A program made the translations under genes and the position numbers. Shown piece by piece: positions 42,167-50,524 of a DNA stretch of 64,000 nucleotides. Below the pieces are notes generated by a model. That model was not told where the DNA came from and did not search any database. It worked only from the letters and a program-made list of their open reading frames with translations. Position 1 is the stretch's first letter, and each line of letters begins with the position of its first letter. Source of the DNA: Candidatus Omnitrophota bacterium (lineage in GTDB: Bacteria > Omnitrophota > Gorgyraeia > JABMRG01); NCBI GenBank assembly GCA_028716165.1, contig JAQUQI010000002.1, positions 83,228-147,227 of the forward strand, written 5' to 3'.

Positions 42167-42976
42167 TTACCAGCGGCCCGATGCTCCTCCGCCGCCGGAA
42201 AATCCTCCCCCGAAACCGCCAAACCCGGAACCGAACCCGCCTCCAGACCCGCCCGGGCCATACCAGTAACCGCCGCGCCTTCGTCCGTTCGGCGTTGTCA
42301 GAAAAAAGAACAAAAGTCCTGAACGCATGCCGAATAAAAGGACAAACAGCAGTAAATATGCCAATGACGAGAGCGGTGACGAGCGTTCTTCTGTCTGTTG
42401 CCGTATGGCAGACATGTTCTCATCAAGGTCAATATTGACATTGTATTCTTTGGCAATAAGGTCAGTGATGGCCAGGATCCCTGCCAGTACCCCTTTTTCA
42501 TAAAGCCCGTTCCTGAATTGTGGGATGATAATTCCGTGGATAATATTGCTTGCAATGGCATCAGGTATCGCCCCTTCCATGCCGTATCCTGTTTCTATCC
42601 TGACGGCTCTGTCAGCCATGGCAAAGAGCAGTAATACCCCATTATCCGAGCCTTTTTGGCCTATGCTCCATTTCTCAAAAAGCCCTGCCGCGTATTGCTC
42701 TATTTCAAGCGGGTTGGTTGTATTAACAATGACAACAGCCAGCTGGGCTCCGGTAAGGGCTTCTATTTGGCTGGCAATGGAAGCGCCTGTTTGCACAGCC
42801 TTTTGGCTTAATGTGCCCGTATAGTCATTAATATAACCGGCGGGTGCCGGGTATGTTTCATTTTCTTCTGTGTATGATGATGAAACAGCAAGAAAAATCA
42901 GGCACAGTATTCCTGCCGCGCTTAAAAAAGGCCTCTTTAATAAAGCTAAACCAAATCTTGCGTCAGGCCTGTTCAT
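42167..42976 (-). CDS. TPM-domain (YgcG-like) protein with C-terminal TM helix and Gly-rich tail
   Basis: TPM phosphatase-like core YINDYTG...LS...AQLAVVIV. C-terminus GGGFGSGFGGFGGGFSGGGG. Confidence 0.8.
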   Translation of the reverse strand: MNRPDARFGLALLKRPFLSAAGILCLIFLAVSSSYTEENETYPAPAGYINDYTGTLSQKAVQTGASIASQIEALTGAQLAVVIVNTTNPLEIEQYAAGLFEKWSIGQKGSDNGVLLLFAMADRAVRIETGYGMEGAIPDAIASNIIHGIIIPQFRNGLYEKGVLAGILAITDLIAKEYNVNIDLDENMSAIRQQTEERSSPLSSLAYLLLFVLLFGMRSGLLFFFLTTPNGRRRGGYWYGPGGSGGGFGSGFGGFGGGFSGGGGASGRW

Positions 42977-43719
42977 AAAACATTATCCGCTATTATGGAT
43001 AGTTTTTCAAGCTGTTCTATAAAACAAAACAAGGCTTCTTCAAGGTTATTGCCGTTGATTTTACCGTCATTTCTTTTGTCCGCGAGTATGTCAGAAAATA
43101 TATCTGTATCAATGTCAAACGCCGTCCCCATGGCCCTTATATTGCCTTCTTTTGTTTGTAAGGCAGGAATGCCCTTTACCCTTAATAATGCTTTGAAGAC
43201 AGGCAATAATCCCGCGAATGAATCCTTTATCAGGGCTTCAATACCTTTACGCCTTTGGCCTATTTCAAGGTAACCCTGCCGCAGCCTTACAAGTTTTCCT
43301 TTTATCTGTTCTTCACATATAAAACGCAGGTTTTTGGGGTCAATATTTATACCGGAAATAATGTCCTCTCCGTATATAAGTATATTATGTTCTTTCATTT
43401 CCATAAACTCTATCGGGAAGGTGTCAAGAGATGACATTATATAGTCCGGCGTAAGGAAAAGAGGCGCGTTAATCCCGCGCCTTATGCCGTCATTGAGTAT
43501 ACCGAGGCTTTTTTTAAGTTCAACGCGGCTTATATGACTGAAAATGACCGCGCTGTTTATGTCGGAGGAGCCCTTTTTGAATTCTTTGCCGGCACAACTG
43601 CCGTATATGAATATAGAAACGATTTTGCCGCTGTGTAATTGCAGGAACCTGTTGAAGTATGGCCCGATCAATTTATAAACATAAACGTCTAATAAGCCGG
43701 TATTCTTTAATTCTGGCAT
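42973..43719 (-). CDS. hypothetical protein with a degenerate polymerase-beta-type nucleotidyltransferase-fold N-terminus
   Basis: IYGSCAGKEFKKGSSDINSAV resembles hGS-x9-13-DhDh, with the second Asp replaced by Asn. First gene of the LemA/TPM operon. Confidence 0.4.
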   Translation of the reverse strand: MPELKNTGLLDVYVYKLIGPYFNRFLQLHSGKIVSIFIYGSCAGKEFKKGSSDINSAVIFSHISRVELKKSLGILNDGIRRGINAPLFLTPDYIMSSLDTFPIEFMEMKEHNILIYGEDIISGINIDPKNLRFICEEQIKGKLVRLRQGYLEIGQRRKGIEALIKDSFAGLLPVFKALLRVKGIPALQTKEGNIRAMGTAFDIDTDIFSDILADKRNDGKINGNNLEEALFCFIEQLEKLSIIADNVL

Positions 43720-43879: not shown

Positions 43880-43918
43880 AACAAAAAAAGAAGCCCGCTT
43901 AAATATCGCGGGCCTCTT
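43880..43918 (-). terminator. rho-independent terminator after the 531-aa secreted protein gene
   Basis: Stem GAAGCCCGC/GCGGGCCTC at 43890-43916. A-run 43883-43889 on plus gives a U7 tract on minus. Confidence 0.65.
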
Positions 43919-43944: not shown

Positions 43945-45540
43945 TTATGCCGCCAATAACGCGTTTTCATACGAATTTATAAATTCCATATGCTCCTGGC
44001 TGTAATCTGATATTATCTCAAACCTCTTGTCTTTTAACAACATGACAAGGGCCTCTATCAAACCTTGCCTGCTCCATGCTATCAAGTCTTCTTCGGCGCT
44101 GGCAAAGACCCTACTCTGGCTTATGTTATTATTAAGCATGAAACCCGCTATTATCAAAGCCGACTGGTCTGGCGTTATTGATGTTTGCTTGAATACGTAA
44201 TTTTCAAATATGTTTTTGTCTATGCCTAATTGGCCTAAAAATATATCCGCAGGCATATTTTCTTTGTTGACTAAATAGAACTTTCTGATATCTCCGGCAG
44301 ATTGTTTTATGACAGCTTGTAAAGCCGGGCTTTCCTTTAACGCGTCGGAATAGACAATTACAGCCTGCGCATTAAGGGGCTTGGCTATATTGTCCTTTGT
44401 AGTAGGCGCGTATGCAAGCAAAGCCTGTGCCATCTGAAGCTGGGCCTCATATTCCGCATCCGGCAGTCTTTCAGGTGTAATGCCGGCTGAAGAGGATTTC
44501 GTCTCCGATATATCTTCTTTCGCGGACAGGGTATACTTCTCTGTAACCGGCTTTTTGGTATCACCGGGGATATTACTGATAGGCGATATATTAGGTATGG
44601 TTGACCTTGGCTTTGTAGAAAATACTTCCCGAATGCCTATTATTTTCTGAAATTTAGCAAAGGCGTTGTTTCTAGGTTGAAGCAAATTCCGGCCCAACGC
44701 TACTTCTCCTGAATGGACGGAGATCAGTGTTACATTCTTTAATTCATCCGGTGCCAGAGGTATATCCGAAGCCAATATTTCAACAATACCGTTTTCTGGT
44801 ATTGTATATTTCTTATTGATTAACCCCCTTGGGCTGTCAGGCGCGTATCCTTGCGGTAGAAGGCGAATATAGAAGTTGATACCGGCCTGTTCTTTGGGAA
44901 ATACCACTTGTAATGTTTTATATCCGCTAAAGTTAAAATTGCCGACTGAAAAACAACTGAACATGCCCTTGTCTTCGCCCCATCTGATAGGTTTATCAGT
45001 TATGACTTGTTCCATGACACATTCAACAGCCTTAGCGCTTGACGGCTCCTCTTGGGAATCCTTGATTAACCTTTTATTCACGTTATATTGCAGAATAGGT
45101 ATGCCTGGTTCCATTTGCGCAGTGAGCCATGTCCAAAAAAAGACGCGAGATAAAATAGCCCAGGGGCTTGGCTTTGCTGATTTTAGGGCATCGGATACGG
45201 CATTGCTAAGCTCTTGACGATTATTGATATTAACGACAGTTCTGCTTTCTGGGCTGATTATTTTTATCTCACTATTTGTTACCGCCTTTGCGGATAAGCG
45301 CCACCCTTTAAAAACCTCATTATTAAGAGCCCAAGCTAATGCCCAAGCGTTGAGGGGGGCTTCAAGTGTGAGTGTAACAATTTTCTCGTTTAGTTCCTTT
45401 TCTATGCCTTTCATTACTATCGGTCCCGCAATCGGAGCCCTTAATGTCCATTCTTGGGCCAAGCCAGGGGTTGCAGACAAAACCGTATTATATAAAAAAG
45501 AAAGCACAATTAATAATGAAACAATTCTTTTGTAGCGCAT
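43945..45540 (-). CDS. large secreted hypothetical protein (orphan)
   Basis: Signal peptide IVSLLIVLSFLYNTVLSATPGLAQE. 531 aa. No recognised domain. Confidence 0.6.
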   Translation of the reverse strand: MRYKRIVSLLIVLSFLYNTVLSATPGLAQEWTLRAPIAGPIVMKGIEKELNEKIVTLTLEAPLNAWALAWALNNEVFKGWRLSAKAVTNSEIKIISPESRTVVNINNRQELSNAVSDALKSAKPSPWAILSRVFFWTWLTAQMEPGIPILQYNVNKRLIKDSQEEPSSAKAVECVMEQVITDKPIRWGEDKGMFSCFSVGNFNFSGYKTLQVVFPKEQAGINFYIRLLPQGYAPDSPRGLINKKYTIPENGIVEILASDIPLAPDELKNVTLISVHSGEVALGRNLLQPRNNAFAKFQKIIGIREVFSTKPRSTIPNISPISNIPGDTKKPVTEKYTLSAKEDISETKSSSAGITPERLPDAEYEAQLQMAQALLAYAPTTKDNIAKPLNAQAVIVYSDALKESPALQAVIKQSAGDIRKFYLVNKENMPADIFLGQLGIDKNIFENYVFKQTSITPDQSALIIAGFMLNNNISQSRVFASAEEDLIAWSRQGLIEALVMLLKDKRFEIISDYSQEHMEFINSYENALLAA

Positions 45541-45677
45541 AGACCCTCCATTTTTGAGTTCATTAATATATTTTAAATGTTTTTAAATACTATCATATAA
45601 ATCATTTGGTGTCAAGTATTAGTTTATCAAATAACAGGTATGCGATTTATAGATAGAAATAGCTTTAGGCGCGGTTT

Positions 45678-46100
45678 TTAACAGATTTTCACGCTAATTA
45701 ACATCTCGTTTAGCTGTTTAAGATCAACCGGCTTATGCAATATCTTGATATCCGGTTTTTCGTAGAGCCTTTTACGGGCAGTTTCTTCGGTATGCCCTGT
45801 AAGCATAATGGGTATGGTATCGGGGCTGGTTTCCTTGAGTCCGGCTATAATGATATCTCCGTCCAGTGGACATGAACTGCTTAAATCCAAATCGCATAAA
45901 AGGACGTCCGGTTTTTCTTTGGCAAGTATAGCCAGGGCTTTTTCAGCCGTATCGGCGCTGGAGATTGCGTAGCCTAAGCGCGTCAAGCATTCGGCTAACA
46001 TATTTAACGCCTTTACATCATCGTCAACCAGCAATATTTTCACTTTAATGCCTCTATGCTTTTGGAAATTCCAGGCAAAACGTGCTTCCGCCGCCGGCAT
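45678..46100 (-). CDS. stand-alone response-regulator receiver (REC) domain protein
   Basis: KILLVDDD, a phospho-acceptor-like Asp in LLCDLDL, and a conserved T/K region. The 5' end overlaps the histidine kinase gene, so the true start may be the internal GTG. Confidence 0.8.
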   Translation of the reverse strand: MPAAEARFAWNFQKHRGIKVKILLVDDDVKALNMLAECLTRLGYAISSADTAEKALAILAKEKPDVLLCDLDLSSSCPLDGDIIIAGLKETSPDTIPIMLTGHTEETARKRLYEKPDIKILHKPVDLKQLNEMLISVKIC

Positions 46101-48132
46101 TATTCCTTGCCGTTATACTGCCTTTATTGCGCAGGATAATTTCACGCACTACTGCCAGCCCGTAACCCGAACCGTCTGTTTTGGTAGTGACAAACGGTTC
46201 AAATATTTTATCAAGCTTATCTTCGGGTATACCGCAGCCCGAATCCGTCACCTCTATTTTTACCTTGTTGTTATCTTCTTTTGCCGTGATCAGAATACAC
46301 CCTTTTTCTTTTATAGCTTCCGCTGCGTTTTTAATCAGATTAAAAAATATCTCTTGCATCTGGTCTTTATCAGCAATGATATCAGGTAAATCCAAAGGTA
46401 TATTTTCTTCTATATGTATCCTGTCTGACTGAAGCTTATGCCCCAGAATATTAAGTGTATCTTTCACGCTTTCTTTTATATTAATGGGTTTTGAATCAAC
46501 AATCTTTTTTGGCTTGGCAAAATTTGAAAGCTTGCCTGTTATGCTGGCGACCTTTTGGATCTCGGACATTATGTCATACATTATTTTTTCCACTTCCTTA
46601 AACTGGTTTTCAAGGTCTCTATTTTCAAAAGGCTTGGCCTTTTTGTTTAATATGTAAGCCTGTATCTGGATGCTTATTCTATTTAACGGATTGCATACTT
46701 CATGATTCACGGCAGAGGCCAATGTCCCTATTGCCGCTAATTTTTCACACTGCGACGCCTGCATAAAAAGCTTAGCGTTGCTTATTGCTATTGAAAGCGC
46801 TTTCATTAAAGTCGTGATTATATCTATATCGTTTTCATCATAAGGCTGATCGGATTTTTTTGCCCCTAAACTTAGTATGCCTACCATTTCATTGTGTATA
46901 ACCAGCGGCAGGCACGCCATGGATTTTATTTTTTCCATGTCTTTTTTTACCGGTTCAGAGGCTTGCGTGCTCTTATTGCGGCTCTGGTAAAGCAAGGGCT
47001 GGTAATTTGCTTTAAGCGCCTGGACAAGACTGCTTTTTGAATCAAAATATACGCCTTTTCCGTCCACTCCAGCCGCGTTATACACTTGATACCCCACCTC
47101 TTCTTTGCTAAGGAGCAAGATAGCGCAATTTGATAAACATAAATGCCTGACCAAAGCCTCAATGGTGACATTGCAGAGCGTATCAAGATTTAAGATAGTT
47201 AATGCTTTGTTGGAGAAATCTTTAAGCATTGTTCGGGCGTCATACTTTTTTTGAAAAAGGTATTTATTGGTTAAGCTTATCAAAAAATTATAAACAGGCT
47301 GTTGTAACAGCACAATAATAACAGCGCTTATCGCCAATGCCAAATACCTGGAGTGCGGAATGTATTTTGCGATAAATTCCTGAGTCAAAAGAGCCGCCAT
47401 GATTATAATGGTGAACACAAAACCGAATAGCCCCGCGAAAACAAGGGTTTTTTTGACAATAACTTCAATATCAAGGAGTTTATGGCGTATAATGGCATAA
47501 GCTACTATTATTACGTATACGGCGATTAAGATATTTAAATAAGGAGAGAATTTAATATCGTACCACATAGGCCAATTAGACGCCCCTCCTATAAAACCAA
47601 AAGCTGCTGCAACTATGCAATATTTTATCTGTTCATGCTTAAAACCGCTACTCGTCTTTAGCCCACGAATAAAATGTATAAAACCATACAATACTTGTAT
47701 AAACCAAAAAACTAAATAAATGTTAAAAAATAAACTTGGTATGGGCCATAATCCTAAATTATATTTTAATATGAACCCATTATAAAAAATACCGGAAAAG
47801 TTGAAATAAATAAAAACGAAACTAACAGCGTAAATGACGCGTAGTAAATTTCTTTTCACAACAAGTCTATCGGTAAAAGCGAAAACAAAATGCAAGAAAG
47901 CGGCATTAATTAAAATGACTCCTAAAACCAAAACTTTAAACCAAAAAATTTTACTTGTATGACCAGCCGTTGTCTGCCATAAAAAATAGCCTATGCTATA
48001 AAGAGTGATAGATAAGTTAACGTTCAAATAGGCCTTGCTGACGGAACTATTCGGTTTTTTTAGATAACCAAACAACCCTAATATCAAACTGGTTAATGCG
48101 TTTATAAGTCCTGTAAAAGCTAAAAAAGTCAT
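46054..48132 (-). CDS. sensor histidine kinase: N-terminal 7-8 TM domain + GAF + HisKA + HATPase_c
   Basis: About 8 hydrophobic helices in the first 330 aa. H-box NHEVCNPLNRI. N, G1 and G2 boxes (DSGCGIP, GSGYGLAV). Confidence 0.85.
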   Translation of the reverse strand: MTFLAFTGLINALTSLILGLFGYLKKPNSSVSKAYLNVNLSITLYSIGYFLWQTTAGHTSKIFWFKVLVLGVILINAAFLHFVFAFTDRLVVKRNLLRVIYAVSFVFIYFNFSGIFYNGFILKYNLGLWPIPSLFFNIYLVFWFIQVLYGFIHFIRGLKTSSGFKHEQIKYCIVAAAFGFIGGASNWPMWYDIKFSPYLNILIAVYVIIVAYAIIRHKLLDIEVIVKKTLVFAGLFGFVFTIIIMAALLTQEFIAKYIPHSRYLALAISAVIIVLLQQPVYNFLISLTNKYLFQKKYDARTMLKDFSNKALTILNLDTLCNVTIEALVRHLCLSNCAILLLSKEEVGYQVYNAAGVDGKGVYFDSKSSLVQALKANYQPLLYQSRNKSTQASEPVKKDMEKIKSMACLPLVIHNEMVGILSLGAKKSDQPYDENDIDIITTLMKALSIAISNAKLFMQASQCEKLAAIGTLASAVNHEVCNPLNRISIQIQAYILNKKAKPFENRDLENQFKEVEKIMYDIMSEIQKVASITGKLSNFAKPKKIVDSKPINIKESVKDTLNILGHKLQSDRIHIEENIPLDLPDIIADKDQMQEIFFNLIKNAAEAIKEKGCILITAKEDNNKVKIEVTDSGCGIPEDKLDKIFEPFVTTKTDGSGYGLAVVREIILRNKGSITARNNAGGGSTFCLEFPKA

Positions 48133-48136
48133 AGTT

Positions 48137-49477
48137 CTATCTTTTGGTTATAATCACAAATAGGATTATGCCAGATTTATCTCTTTCAGTTTGCACATCA
48201 AAGTCTATTGATATGCCTTCTTTTATGATATTAAGAAGTTTTTCTTCATGCCTGGGATAGAATGTCCAGTCTGCCCACCAATCTATGGCGACAGGATCGT
48301 ATTTGATTATATCCTTGTGAGCTAAAATCAGGGTTCCGTTCGGTTGCAGGATATCAAACCAAAAAGAGATAAGTAACTTAAGTAGCCTGTCAGGCAGATA
48401 ATCAGCCAAACCTATACTATAAATAAGCGAATAATCGCCTAAAATTTTTTTATAATCCTGACTATCTTTTATATAGTTTAATACATTATGGTTTAGGTAT
48501 CTATGTTCAAGAAGTTTTGATGCATAGGGACTTAAAACTTTTTTGGAAAAATCCAGCGCCTCTTGATCGTGATCAACCAGAGTGAAGATTGTCTTGTTTT
48601 TCGGCGCAAAGCCTGTTGAGAGCATTTCTACTATTTCTCTGCAGGATCCGCAAGCAATATTTAAAATTTTTGTGGGATTAAACCTTGATTTTAAGAGATA
48701 TTTTTCAAGCATATCTTTCATTTTGTCTTTTCTGTTTCTTACGGCCGCAGCGTACTCATTGTTTAAAAAATACATATCCGAACAATACCCTATATTTTCA
48801 GAGATCGCTTTATTGTTATAAACAAGCTCTATAGTAAAATAATCACCTGGATAACCGCGCGGTTTTTCATAGGCGCGTTTAAGAATTTTGCCTCTATAAG
48901 CCCACGGGCCTAACAACGCTCTAAAACATTCTTTTGATTTTTTGATTAATTTCTTATTGGAAAGCAAGTTTTCAAGATTATGGCCTTTTTCCACAATGTC
49001 ATCAGTTATTCTTCCCGCTTTATTACAGGCATCGGTTAATCGTATTTTATTATTTTGGATATCATTGACAAGAGAATCCAATTGCGACATATATTTCTTA
49101 CAGTGTATAGTCCAGAAGTCTGATACAGTTTGTTTATCATCAGAACACGTTATTTCATCAATAATGGGTTTTATGGTTTCGCGTATGCACATGCCGCGCA
49201 GATAGTCTAGATCCCTTTCCTTTAATCTTATAAAACACGCGCCGTACCTGAAACCGTTTTTTTGTATAAGATGTTTGCTCCAAATGATTTTAAATTCTGT
49301 TTTTATGGATTCGTTTGGCGACAGTTCTATATCCGCAACGGCGTTTGACAGTAGCAAAGGTTTTTCAAAAGCAATGCCGAAACCTGTTTCACTGATGTCT
49401 ATGACTTTACCAAATACATTGGAATTGATACGTAAAGGAAAAGAAGTTTTAATTCTTGGGTATAGCCGTTTATTCAT
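48137..49477 (-). CDS. PilZ-domain protein fused to a class-I SAM-methyltransferase-like domain
   Basis: N-terminal RIKTSFPLRIN...DISETGFGIAF matches the PilZ RxxxR / (D/N)xSxGG motifs. C-terminal ILNIACGSCREIVEM resembles MTase motif I with Gly-to-Ala/Cys substitutions. Confidence 0.55.
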   Translation of the reverse strand: MNKRLYPRIKTSFPLRINSNVFGKVIDISETGFGIAFEKPLLLSNAVADIELSPNESIKTEFKIIWSKHLIQKNGFRYGACFIRLKERDLDYLRGMCIRETIKPIIDEITCSDDKQTVSDFWTIHCKKYMSQLDSLVNDIQNNKIRLTDACNKAGRITDDIVEKGHNLENLLSNKKLIKKSKECFRALLGPWAYRGKILKRAYEKPRGYPGDYFTIELVYNNKAISENIGYCSDMYFLNNEYAAAVRNRKDKMKDMLEKYLLKSRFNPTKILNIACGSCREIVEMLSTGFAPKNKTIFTLVDHDQEALDFSKKVLSPYASKLLEHRYLNHNVLNYIKDSQDYKKILGDYSLIYSIGLADYLPDRLLKLLISFWFDILQPNGTLILAHKDIIKYDPVAIDWWADWTFYPRHEEKLLNIIKEGISIDFDVQTERDKSGIILFVIITKR

Positions 49478-50388
49478 TATTTTACCTTTCTGATCAGGTT
49501 ATGCTTAAAGCATATAGACCATATCATTTTATTCAGTCTTTCGGCGTTTTCTTTGTCTTTTTTTTCATCATAGTTATACATATCGTCGCTTTCAATCCAT
49601 ATACCCCCGCTATGCTTGGCGTCTTTAAAACCGTGGGAGTTTATGTTTTGTTGAGTGCCATGGACAATTATTGCTTTCGGCGCATACTTTGATTTCATAA
49701 TATCACTTATCAGGTTGGCGGTTGATTCGGATTTTTTGCCATGCGGCTTGTCCGTTGGTACCTCGGTAGCGCATATTACTATATCCGGCCTGAAAGCAGA
49801 CAGGGCCCTCCGAGCTTCTTTTTGGCAATATACCGGCATATACTCATATTCGCCGTATGGCTCTACAAGCGGCGGAGGATATTTGTGTTCGCCGTCTTGA
49901 ATAGGCAAAAGATAAGGCATCCAGAACTCTCTTTCAATAAAAAGTATTTTTGCCGCCGGAACAATGTCATTTCTTCTTGTGATTTCATCTAAAGAAACGG
50001 GAATTACCCTGGTAGCGTCTTTTGCCTTTAGAACATCGTCTATTCTGTTTATTATCTCATCAAGTAGAATAGGTTTCGGGAAAAAACCGTCCACTCCAAG
50101 TTCTGCTACTGCTTTTTTCACTTCATTGTCATAACTTGTTATGACTAATACCTTTGTATCGGGATATTCCTGACGAATTATTTTTAGTACCTGTATCCCG
50201 TTTATTCCCGGAAGCTGCATATCAAGCAAAACAATGTCAGGTTTTTTTTCTTCCAATATTTTTAAAGCTTCTTCACCTGTCAGTGTTAAATATATTTCAT
50301 GTTTTAATACTTTTGGGATAAGGTCTGTGAGGAGATTAATAATGCTTACATCGTCATCAACAACAAGGATCTTTTTGATATCCGCCAT
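49477..50388 (-). CDS. response regulator: REC domain + uncharacterised C-terminal flavodoxin-like (degenerate REC-like) domain
   Basis: KILVVDDD...DIVLLDMQLPGINGIQ canonical REC. C-terminal beta-alpha-beta pattern (KILFIE, PDIVICATE, AIIVHGT) without a recognised output domain. Confidence 0.7.
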   Translation of the reverse strand: MADIKKILVVDDDVSIINLLTDLIPKVLKHEIYLTLTGEEALKILEEKKPDIVLLDMQLPGINGIQVLKIIRQEYPDTKVLVITSYDNEVKKAVAELGVDGFFPKPILLDEIINRIDDVLKAKDATRVIPVSLDEITRRNDIVPAAKILFIEREFWMPYLLPIQDGEHKYPPPLVEPYGEYEYMPVYCQKEARRALSAFRPDIVICATEVPTDKPHGKKSESTANLISDIMKSKYAPKAIIVHGTQQNINSHGFKDAKHSGGIWIESDDMYNYDEKKDKENAERLNKMIWSICFKHNLIRKVK

Positions 50389-50503
50389 AGCCCTCCCCTA
50401 CCGCTTCTTTAGATACAGCGGTGGTTTATTAGTTAATATTATTATAACAAATAGATAAAGCCGGCGGTAGGGAAAAATAGTAAAATGAAGTATTTCTTTT
50501 GAT

Positions 50504-50524
50504 AAAAACGCGAATATCGCGATT
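50504..50524 (-). terminator. rho-independent terminator after the FAD-linked oxidase gene (CGCGA-ATA-TCGCG + U-tract)
   Basis: Palindrome at 50509-50521 with aaaaa at 50504-50508 on plus. Confidence 0.55.

Follow-up and report, generated by a model that had tools for sequence, protein, structure and literature searches.

A PilZ-fused, PhcB-like methyltransferase encoded beside a seven-helix membrane histidine kinase: a candidate signal synthase and receptor module in an Omnitrophota bacterium

Introduction

To our knowledge, work on Phc-type signalling has been confined to Ralstonia and the closely related Cupriavidus, and we know of almost nothing on cell-cell communication in candidate phyla. 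In Ralstonia, PhcB is the genetically established synthase of a 3-hydroxy-fatty-acid methyl-ester quorum signal, which is secreted (PMC8578825), and there is evidence that PhcQ influences the synthesis of this signal by PhcB (PMC6989110). The receivers of the phc operon lack DNA-binding domains, and its list of parts is that of the operon described here (PMC8578825, PMC11960443). As for the coupling of PilZ domains to methyltransferases, the PilZ reviews that we could search mention only the two-protein MapZ-CheR1 pair, and none of them reports a fusion.

Here we analyzed a 64-kb stretch of Omnitrophota DNA (the window), in which an earlier note had described a compact four-gene signalling operon and likened it to a chemotaxis-like adaptation module. 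Literature searches on PilZ with PhcB, on HisKA_7TM and on Omnitrophota with quorum sensing returned no earlier description of such a module.

Results

The four minus-strand open reading frames of the proposed operon are all present (Table 1), and their spacing is indeed tight, with a 1-nt overlap between RR1 and the methyltransferase gene and a 4-nt gap between the latter and the kinase gene. The longest junction that the earlier note gave, a 47-nt overlap of the kinase gene and RR2, is probably an artefact of taking the longest open reading frame; the start of RR2 is probably GTG 46043, which lies 10 nt past the kinase stop codon, has AGAGG in front of it and yields a 121-aa product, matching the 116-128 aa of RR2 homologues.

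The terminators that were said to bracket the four genes, at 50504-50524 and ~43.9 kb, were both found, yet they enclose five genes, as the latter comes after a 531-aa gene and no terminator-like fold lies directly 3' of RR2 (fold z=0.27). The upstream hairpin ends an FAD-oxidase (GlcD-like) gene and sets the 5' boundary of the unit, while the downstream one (43918..43888 plus the T-tract) folds with a dG of -28.5 kcal/mol and z=-6.5, a value reached by 0/200 shuffles. The TATAAT ahead of RR1 was seen by direct reading and was not picked up by a two-hexamer promoter scan.

Since no terminator follows RR2, the 531-aa gene may be co-transcribed with the module, though the scan also found a promoter-like TTGACA-17-TAGTAT with TG at 45615..45587 that would be its own. 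Its product has a hydrophobic, signal-peptide-like N-terminus, matches nothing by sequence in Pfam, NCBIfam or the PDB, and has a single PHROGs match, to a ParB-like partition nuclease (E=8e-4, 17.8 bits), which is too weak to interpret. As no homologue occurs in any of the 87 related loci, we treat this gene as a passenger.

Table 1. Features of the unit and its boundaries, in the direction of transcription (positions are those of the window)
Feature	Position	Strand	Basis or remark
Terminator-like hairpin and T-run	50509..50521	(-)	scan match CGCGATATTCGCG, then TTTTTATCAA; sequence read
Putative -10 TATAAT	50446..50441	(-)	ahead of RR1 start codon; consensus resemblance only
Putative ribosome-binding site GGGGAGGG	50398..50391	(-)	ahead of RR1 start codon; consensus resemblance only
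RR1, REC + pseudo-REC, 303 aa	50388..49477	(-)	open reading frame
RR1 canonical receiver (residues 1-121) and pseudo-receiver (~140-303)	49477..50388	(-)	Pfam, hhalign, AF2, Foldseek
PilZ + class I SAM methyltransferase protein, 446 aa	49477..48137	(-)	open reading frame
PilZ beta-barrel, residues 1-85 of the 446-aa protein	49223..49477	(-)	Pfam, motifs, AF2
Four-helix linker, residues 87-193	48899..49219	(-)	joins PilZ to methyltransferase; AF2
PhcB-like class I SAM methyltransferase domain, residues 197-446	48137..48889	(-)	
HisKA_7TM-GAF histidine kinase, 692 aa	48132..46054	(-)	open reading frame
Sensor histidine kinase domains	46054..48132	(-)	HisKA_7TM 3-276, GAF 315-450, DHp His477, HATPase_c 588-691
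RR2 stand-alone REC, longest frame, 140 aa	46100..45678	(-)	open reading frame
RR2 from its probable GTG start, 121 aa	45678..46043	(-)	Pfam Response_reg E=3e-18
Fifth gene, 531 aa	45540..43945	(-)	open reading frame
Intrinsic terminator, 11-bp GC-rich stem and T7 tract	43882..43918	(-)	3' boundary of unit

The 446-aa protein had been described as a PilZ domain joined to a methyltransferase-like domain, and both halves of this description were borne out. The motifs quoted for PilZ, RIKTSFPLRIN and DISETGFG, are present as RxxxR (R4 and R8) and DxSxxG (D27-I-S29-E-T-G32), with R4, R8 and G32 invariant and S29 conserved in at least 90% of a 30-sequence alignment. Pfam PilZ (PF07238) detects residues 3-97 with 28.0 bits (cut-off 22.5) and matches 30/30 aligned homologues (best E=5e-13). 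In the AF2 model (pTM 0.84) the barrel is formed by six strands within residues 14-82 (pLDDT 81-88), followed by linker helices at 87-108, 112-141, 147-172 and 175-193 (pLDDT about 90). Judging by these motifs the protein would bind c-di-GMP via PilZ, and the linker likely serves as an allosteric relay between the two domains.

The C-terminal part scores above the cut-off for Pfam Methyltransf_20 (24.9 bits against 21). When the family profile was searched against PDB sequences, the matches were only marginal (BseCI, E=0.008; the PilZ protein YpfA, E=0.018), so that a fold comparison was needed. The model (pLDDT 89.7) shows a complete class I fold, in which a helical cap with an invariant KPRGYPGDY precedes a Rossmann fold of seven strands that has ILNIACGSCRE as motif I; among solved structures, methyltransferases of small molecules and natural products come closest, and the many fold neighbours include phospholipid N-methyltransferases and cyclopropane-fatty-acid synthase. 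The earlier note had called motif I degenerate and had asked whether the SAM pocket is intact. ACGSCRE turned out to be near-invariant across the 30 aligned homologues, and the variant also occurs in PhcB. About 40 positions, including the conserved SAM-binding residues of the entire pocket and the substrate-side cap, are invariant among homologues of 35-65% identity, as one would expect of an enzyme; the alignment argues that the methyltransferase is not degenerate.

The relation to PhcB was assessed with a Paraburkholderia reference, which was obtained by tblastn against plasmids, a search that found no full-length match to the 446-aa protein. This reference is 68% identical to Cupriavidus proteins and sits in a methyltransferase-kinase-receiver-receiver cluster; its family in Burkholderiales carries the JGI/NCBI name 'extracellular factor 3-hydroxypalmitic acid methyl ester biosynthesis protein' (PhcB, KEGG K19620, by its sources), and the same JGI name is attached to three homologues of the 446-aa protein itself. 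Pairwise BLASTP aligned residues 169-441 with the reference (E=1e-21), and profile-profile comparison aligned residues 189-420 with the PhcB family over 228 columns (hhalign 99.6%, E=6e-24), spanning the pre-Rossmann KPxGYxGDY, motif I and YS/CxGLxDYL. The N-terminal ~200 residues of PhcB do not match PilZ plus linker (hhalign probability <1%); full-length orthology is not found, and the idea of a cryptic PilZ barrel in the PhcB N-terminus was rejected. From these comparisons we take the protein to be a catalytic-domain relative of PhcB, not an orthologue. Its gene context is also that of the PhcB family, with a membrane sensor kinase and receivers free of DNA-binding domains adjoining.

The kinase agrees with what had been claimed for it, a sensor of 7-8 transmembrane segments followed by GAF and kinase domains. 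A hydropathy scan found seven such segments in residues 3-276, the region matches HisKA_7TM (PF16927; 49.4 bits, cut-off 28.6), and GAF and HATPase_c (E=7e-25) also exceed their gathering thresholds. Its core is 28% identical to a PhcS-like kinase (E=1e-30), with His477 (NHEVCNPL) opposite the H-box His. Only this DHp/ATPase core aligns; the membrane region gave no alignment, and its Pfam family differs, being HisKA_7TM here and a weak MASE8 match in the PhcS-like reference. PrsK, the XrtA/PEP-CTERM kinase (TIGR02916), is similar in architecture, but at 119 bits against a 300-bit cut-off the window kinase is not a member.

The reading of RR1 as a receiver fused to a second receiver-like domain that lacks the phospho-acceptor, and of RR2 as a stand-alone receiver, held on all counts. 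Residues 7-116 of RR1 match Pfam Response_reg (E=3e-25) and the family alignment shows D12, D56, T84 and K105 in place, while its C-terminal half aligns with the N-terminal REC (hhalign 92.7%, E=4e-7) and is without an acceptor Asp. The AF2 model (pLDDT 81, pTM 0.82) has the REC-REC' part of PleD as its best Foldseek matches. Neither RR1 nor RR2 carries a DNA-binding or enzymatic output. In related loci, RR1-type genes were judged by a length of at least 240 aa and the hhalign test; a jackhmmer profile seeded with the C-terminal half of RR1 came to match REC domains of every kind, which made its per-locus labels unusable.

We surveyed gene neighbourhoods at 80 loci from GTDB species genomes of many phyla, 77 of which had enough downstream DNA. 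A HisKA_7TM protein is the next same-strand gene after the methyltransferase in 56 of these 77 (median gap about 5 nt), and a different multi-TM hybrid kinase takes this place in 7 more. Of the four-gene synteny that the earlier note had proposed to look for, the methyltransferase and 7TM sensor pair is thus the conserved part, and the receivers vary from locus to locus as accessories. At its N-terminus the methyltransferase carries PilZ, REC+PilZ or no such domain, with REC replacing or joining PilZ in some family members. This swapping, together with the family-wide PilZ motifs, points to the enzyme as the component under regulation, which agrees with the evidence on PhcQ and PhcB (PMC6989110). 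Its partners comprise 7TM-GAF-kinases, 7TM-HD-GYP proteins, non-7TM hybrid kinases and a PhcS-like kinase, with no cytoplasmic domain common to them; a polytopic membrane region is the sole feature that all share, and this speaks more for a lipophilic ligand than for a conserved methyl-acceptor site.

HD-GYP genes occur in 16/80 loci (12 on the same strand), as REC-HD-GYP, GAF-HD-GYP or 7TM-HD-GYP, compared to a GGDEF motif in 2 loci. Acyl-carrier-protein (ACP) genes occur in 10 loci, in one of them (L008, a 65%-identical relative) directly 3' of the kinase gene, and 4HBT thioesterase genes lie close to the module in L001 and L004; the neighbours in L001 include ACP, thioesterase, UbiA and polyprenyl synthase. 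A homologue search of the 64-kb window found no HD-GYP gene, the output of an Rpf/DSF-type circuit, and a crude regex scan for GGDEF, EAL and HD-GYP found nothing credible.

Discussion

We give about an even chance to the reading in which this operon encodes a Phc-like two-component module, with a signal synthase, its receptor and an input from c-di-GMP. What has been established, and what this reading builds on, are the domain identities, the PhcB homology, the integrity of the SAM and PilZ motifs and the conservation of the gene pair. The 446-aa protein would be an active enzyme of the PhcB lineage that methylates small molecules with SAM, and by analogy with PhcB its product would be hydrophobic and methylated, most plausibly a fatty-acid methyl ester. 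Binding of c-di-GMP to the N-terminal PilZ domain would tune catalysis, in one direction or the other, via the four-helix linker; the product would partition into the membrane, where the kinase, whose gene is translationally coupled, would sense it with its seven-helix domain, autophosphorylate on His477 and pass the phosphate to RR2 and RR1. As these have no DNA-binding or enzymatic output, they would act by protein-protein contacts, like PhcR and PhcQ. At the level of the family, HD-GYP ends in sister loci could close a loop from c-di-GMP through signal synthesis and receptor back to c-di-GMP. The signal may pass between cells, in which case the operon could have a quorum function, or may act on its producer only.

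Several observations count against this reading. The identity to PhcB is only 24%, and methyltransferase families switch substrate readily; the kinase and PhcS have non-homologous sensor domains; the 64 kb of the window encode neither an ACP nor a thioesterase, HD-GYP or GGDEF protein, nor anything that can be named as the output; and tight linkage of synthase and receptor is equally expected of a methyltransferase that acts on its neighbour. Omnitrophota are, moreover, often tiny and possibly host-associated, so that they have no evident need of classical quorum sensing.

The alternative that survives best, though we think it unlikely, is that the methyltransferase is an effector that methylates an envelope lipid or metabolite under c-di-GMP control while the 7TM-GAF kinase monitors the membrane or metabolic state, the two forming a homeostatic circuit rather than a means of communication. 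The fold resemblance to lipid and small-molecule methyltransferases and the neighbours in L001 fit lipid metabolism too, and no ligand is on record for HisKA_7TM, which PMC5847659 only lists as a sensor domain. Against it, the specific homology points to PhcB, which makes a secreted signal (PMC8578825), the pairing with the sensor is much tighter and wider than that with any metabolic gene, and the operon in the window has no gene of lipid metabolism.

The chemotaxis-like adaptation of the earlier note, here taken to mean that methylation of the kinase or a receiver by the PilZ-methyltransferase resets the sensitivity of this target, with c-di-GMP in the role that MapZ has towards CheR1 in Pseudomonas but within one fused protein, is improbable. 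It could draw on the translational coupling of the methyltransferase and kinase genes, with gaps of about 5 nt, on the precedent of PilZ control in MapZ-CheR1 (bioRxiv 10.1101/814665, PMC12564702), on the HD-GYP outputs of sister loci, which could feed c-di-GMP back onto the methyltransferase, and on a weak, sub-threshold CheR match of the Paraburkholderia PhcB-family reference (E=0.0011). This module claim is nevertheless unsupported, because the fold resembles that of small-molecule methyltransferases rather than CheR, and a methylesterase is missing: the 446-aa protein does not qualify as a CheR-type protein-glutamate methyltransferase, and no CheB, CheD, MCP, CheA or CheW domain occurs in the five genes of the unit or in the annotated related loci.

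A catalytically inert methyltransferase domain that senses SAM/SAH or another ligand and that, together with PilZ, integrates metabolic state and c-di-GMP and regulates the kinase through direct contact, is very improbable: motif I (ACGSC) departs from the textbook GxGxG, no substrate is known and PilZ adaptors can regulate kinases directly, as HapZ does SagS (PMC12564702), but PhcB, a genetically established signal synthase, has the same motif variant (PMC8578825) and the invariant SAM pocket and cap are what one would expect of an enzyme.

Returning to the Phc-like module, PhcB-like methyltransferase and membrane-sensor pairs occur in 272 GTDB species genomes from at least 8 phyla, most of them uncultivated. 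We tentatively suggest, at somewhat less than even chances, that they make up a widespread, undescribed class of lipid-methyl-ester signalling, with c-di-GMP gating synthesis via the fused PilZ domain and HD-GYP feedback. If true, a c-di-GMP receptor directly on a signal synthase would be a one-protein link from an intracellular messenger of sessility to extracellular signalling, a loop of second messenger and quorum signal would be hard-wired into one operon, Phc synthase-receptor logic would be ancient and widespread in candidate phyla, and the orphan HisKA_7TM sensor domain would gain its first ligand class. With its four genes the system is compact, and it is open to direct tests.

Among the known proteins and systems compared here is PDB 3ocj, an uncharacterised 'putative exported protein' of Bordetella parapertussis, which has 16% identity and no PilZ domain. 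PleD of Caulobacter (REC-REC'-GGDEF) resembles RR1, which aligns structurally with its phosphorylatable receiver and adaptor pseudo-receiver but stops after the latter, with no GGDEF or other output. The Rpf/DSF circuit of Xanthomonas (the synthase RpfF, the membrane hybrid kinase RpfC and the REC-HD-GYP protein RpfG) would share a lipid-type signal sensed by a polytopic membrane kinase and an output that lowers c-di-GMP, the latter through the HD-GYP proteins of sister loci; RpfF is a crotonase-family enzyme, whereas the proposed synthase here is a methyltransferase. In MapZ-CheR1 of Pseudomonas aeruginosa, PilZ is likewise coupled to a SAM-dependent methyltransferase and c-di-GMP controls methylation, yet there two proteins are involved, c-di-GMP-bound MapZ inhibiting CheR1, a protein-glutamate methyltransferase of chemoreceptors, while here a single fusion carries a PhcB-like, small-molecule-type enzyme with no CheR signature, methylesterase or MCP.

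The closest system is phcBSRQ of Ralstonia and Cupriavidus. The operon in the window, whose host is an uncultivated Omnitrophota bacterium, differs in having PilZ and a four-helix linker instead of the N-terminal ~200 residues of PhcB, HisKA_7TM and GAF instead of the PhcS membrane domain, a receiver gene in first place, and an RR1 of REC and pseudo-REC where PhcR is REC and kinase-like; a PhcA-type LysR regulator was not identified for it. The two nonetheless consist of the same four kinds of parts (PhcB methyltransferase, PhcS kinase, and the receivers PhcR and PhcQ), with two receiver proteins that both lack DNA-binding domains, a homologous catalytic domain that shares KPxGYxGDY and N-[IV]-[AG]-C-G-[SP]-x-x-E, a methyltransferase gene directly upstream of that of a polytopic membrane kinase, and evidence that the synthase is itself regulated.

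Organization of the operon

The four minus-strand open reading frames that an earlier note had described all lie where it placed them, and each of the domains it named is backed by a Pfam match above the gathering threshold. Response_reg was matched on RR1 (the first gene product, a receiver followed by a pseudo-receiver; residues 7-116) and on RR2 (the stand-alone receiver encoded by the fourth gene), PilZ (28.0 bits) and Methyltransf_20 (24.9 bits) on the PilZ-methyltransferase (METHYLTRANSFERASE), and HisKA_7TM, GAF and HATPase_c on the histidine kinase, in which a hydropathy scan placed seven TM segments in residues 3-276. An exact match (P0001) was found on a 257-kb Candidatus Omnitrophica MAG contig.

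Coordinates of the operon, its surroundings and one gene of a related locus (window positions unless a locus is named)
Feature	Position	Strand	Remarks
Hairpin with T-run	50521..50509	-	end of upstream GlcD-like FAD oxidase gene
TATAAT	50446..50441	-	5' of RR1 start codon
Ribosome-binding site GGGGAGGG	upstream of RR1 start codon	-	sequence reading
RR1	50388..49477	-	303 aa
PilZ-methyltransferase	49477..48137	-	446 aa
Kinase	48132..46054	-	692 aa
RR2	46100..45678	-	140 aa as longest ORF
531-aa protein	43945-45540	-	signal-peptide-like N-terminus; between RR2 and strong terminator
Strong terminator with T-tract	43918..43888	-	dG -28.5 kcal/mol, z=-6.5; 3' of 531-aa gene
248-aa protein, weak nucleotidyltransferase (Polbeta) match, and 269-aa TPM-domain protein with Gly-rich C-terminal tail	42167-43719	-	4-nt overlap
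ACP of L008	10473-10703 (L008)		76 aa, LGIDSL motif

The genes had been said to abut or overlap by 0-47 nt. RR1 and the methyltransferase gene indeed overlap by 1 nt, and 4 nt separate the latter from the kinase gene, but the 47-nt overlap of kinase and RR2 is probably an artefact, since translation of RR2 from an alternative start (GTG 46043, with AGAGG in front, 10 nt past the kinase stop) gives a product of 121 aa, matching the size of its homologues. Likewise, the terminators thought to bracket the operon are both real, but they enclose five genes rather than four, as no terminator-like structure was detected 3' of RR2 (folding versus shuffles, z=0.27) and a strong one follows the 531-aa gene. 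This fifth gene has a promoter-like sequence of its own (TTGACA-17-TAGTAT); its product had no Pfam, NCBIfam or PDB match, none of 87 related loci has a homologue of it, and we treat it as a passenger. The G+C content falls to 36.5-37.1% over the operon (46001-50000), whereas the bins on either side have 41.7-43.2% and most of the window has ~44-47%; the drop may be due to horizontal acquisition, or simply to membrane and helical coding sequence being AT-rich.

The N-terminal receiver of RR1 has D12, D56, T84 and K105 in place. Its C-terminal half was correctly recognized as a pseudo-receiver: it matches the protein's own REC profile (92.7% probability, E=4e-7), it carries Ala207 opposite the acceptor Asp56 and E-R opposite the DD pair, and the best match of the AF2 model of RR1 (pLDDT 81) is the REC-REC' pair of PleD. 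No output domain was found in RR1 or RR2.

The methyltransferase is homologous to PhcB

A search of 5.8 billion proteins yielded at least 470 relatives of the PilZ-methyltransferase, mainly from Omnitrophota, three of which carry the JGI name 'extracellular factor 3-hydroxypalmitic acid methyl ester biosynthesis protein', used in KEGG (K19620) for PhcB, the synthase of the Ralstonia quorum signal. By tblastn of plasmids we found a 468-aa Paraburkholderia graminis methyltransferase, situated in a methyltransferase-kinase-receiver-receiver cluster; this reference is 68% identical to proteins of Cupriavidus, in which phcB and phcS orthologues are known (PMC6989110), and many of its relatives bear the PhcB name. 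The window protein aligned with it pairwise at E=1e-21 (residues 169-441), and a profile-profile comparison of 30 window-type with 14 PhcB-type sequences gave 99.6% probability and E=6e-24 (residues 189-420). Common to both types are a pre-Rossmann KP(R/L)GY(P/A)GDY motif, a motif I of the form N-[IV]-[AG]-C-G-[SP]-x-x-E, an Asp behind beta2 and, behind beta4, Y-[SC]-x-G-L-x-D-Y-L; in the family alignment each of these is invariant or near-invariant. Motif I (ACGSCRE), previously taken to be degenerate, is thus typical of the family. At E<=1e-30 the catalytic-domain family forms 262 clusters (50% identity), and relaxing the cut-off to E<=1e-10 brings the number to 1,832.

The PilZ head was detected in all 30 aligned homologues, with R4 and R8 (RxxxR) and G32 invariant and S29 conserved in at least 90% within (D/N)xSxxG, and this match and these motifs make c-di-GMP binding likely.

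The methyltransferase-sensor pair is the conserved unit

Scanning GTDB species genomes, we obtained 272 loci, provisionally labelled (by MAG titles) Omnitrophota, Spirochaetota/Leptospirales, Thermodesulfobacteriota, Nitrospirota, Planctomycetota, Elusimicrobiota, Margulisiibacteriota and others, and analysed the 80 best, 77 of them with enough downstream DNA. The next same-strand gene after the methyltransferase encodes a HisKA_7TM homologue in 56 of these 77 (median gap ~5 nt) and a different multi-TM hybrid kinase in 7 more; the sensor is missing only in the most distant Planctomycetota members. Its output is usually a kinase, and HD-GYP in L005/L014. A receiver gene follows the kinase in 17/37 loci and precedes the methyltransferase in 9/49, with both in 2. 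Of the proposed four-gene arrangement, the methyltransferase-sensor pair is widely kept and is the conserved unit, and the receivers are variable accessories; the full order recurs solely among close relatives, L001 for example.

The methyltransferase N-terminus also varies, with PilZ in 44 of the 80 loci, none in 35 and REC+PilZ in 1. Profile labels assign REC+PilZ to L004 and mark L032 as a second such GTDB locus; among metagenome homologues, precomputed Pfam gave two REC fusions, P0060 (the same as L004) and P0095.

Several loci show further arrangements. On a 567-kb Omnitrophota contig (L002:2531-12271) the module adjoins integrase (rve) and HTH_17 genes, and after it come an ACP gene and six genes for receivers, of which two are RR1-like with 294 aa; this suggests mobility and an expanded phosphorelay. 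In L015, L028, L043, L046 and L049 it is tandemly duplicated, with two 7TM kinases or PilZ-methyltransferases side by side, as expected of diversifying signal/receptor channels. Between the PilZ-less methyltransferase and the 7TM-HD-GYP receptor of L005 (8238-10063; the same as L014) lie genes for a 305-aa protein that matched no Pfam family and for another methyltransferase, of 303 aa. A 2.2-kb contig labelled 'uncultured archaeon' (L077), too short to bear out that label, encodes the methyltransferase and then a 7TM-GAF protein.

GAF-HD-GYP, or in Thermodesulfobacteriota REC-HD-GYP, is a recurrent neighbour; HD-GYP genes were found in 16 of the 80 loci (12 on the methyltransferase strand) and a GGDEF motif in 2. 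Acyl-carrier-protein (ACP) genes accompany 10 loci, including the closest relative (L008, 65% identity), where one directly follows the kinase in the place of RR2, and in L001 and L004 the module has 4HBT thioesterase genes nearby. No HD-GYP, GGDEF, ACP or 4HBT thioesterase gene was found in the 64 kb of the window.

A proposed Phc-like synthase and receptor module

On the best-supported reading, the operon encodes a signal synthase and receptor module of the Phc kind, in which c-di-GMP would gate the synthase and a small lipophilic product would be made and then sensed in the membrane. Such a product is favoured over protein methylation by the specific homology to PhcB, which makes a secreted signal, by the small-molecule type of the methyltransferase fold and the absence of a demethylase, and by the partner proteins, which have only a polytopic membrane region in common and share no cytoplasmic domain. 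We infer the product, c-di-GMP binding and the sign of its control, the kinase ligand, and intercellular as against autocrine signalling. That the methyltransferase is instead an effector modifying a lipid or metabolite under two-component and c-di-GMP control seems unlikely. Still less probable is a CheR-like adaptation enzyme, as in the chemotaxis-like module envisaged in the earlier note. An inert, SAM-sensing domain is the alternative to which we give least credence.

Our literature search, which covered PilZ together with PhcB, HisKA_7TM, and quorum sensing in Omnitrophota, brought up no account of this module, and the sole case mentioned in the PilZ reviews searched is the two-protein MapZ-CheR1. 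Returning to the Phc-like reading, the phc operon (phcBSRQ) has the same list of parts as the window operon, and there too the receivers are without DNA-binding domains (PMC8578825, PMC11960443). An effect on signal synthesis is also known for PhcQ (PMC6989110), a parallel to the regulatory heads carried by the synthase here.
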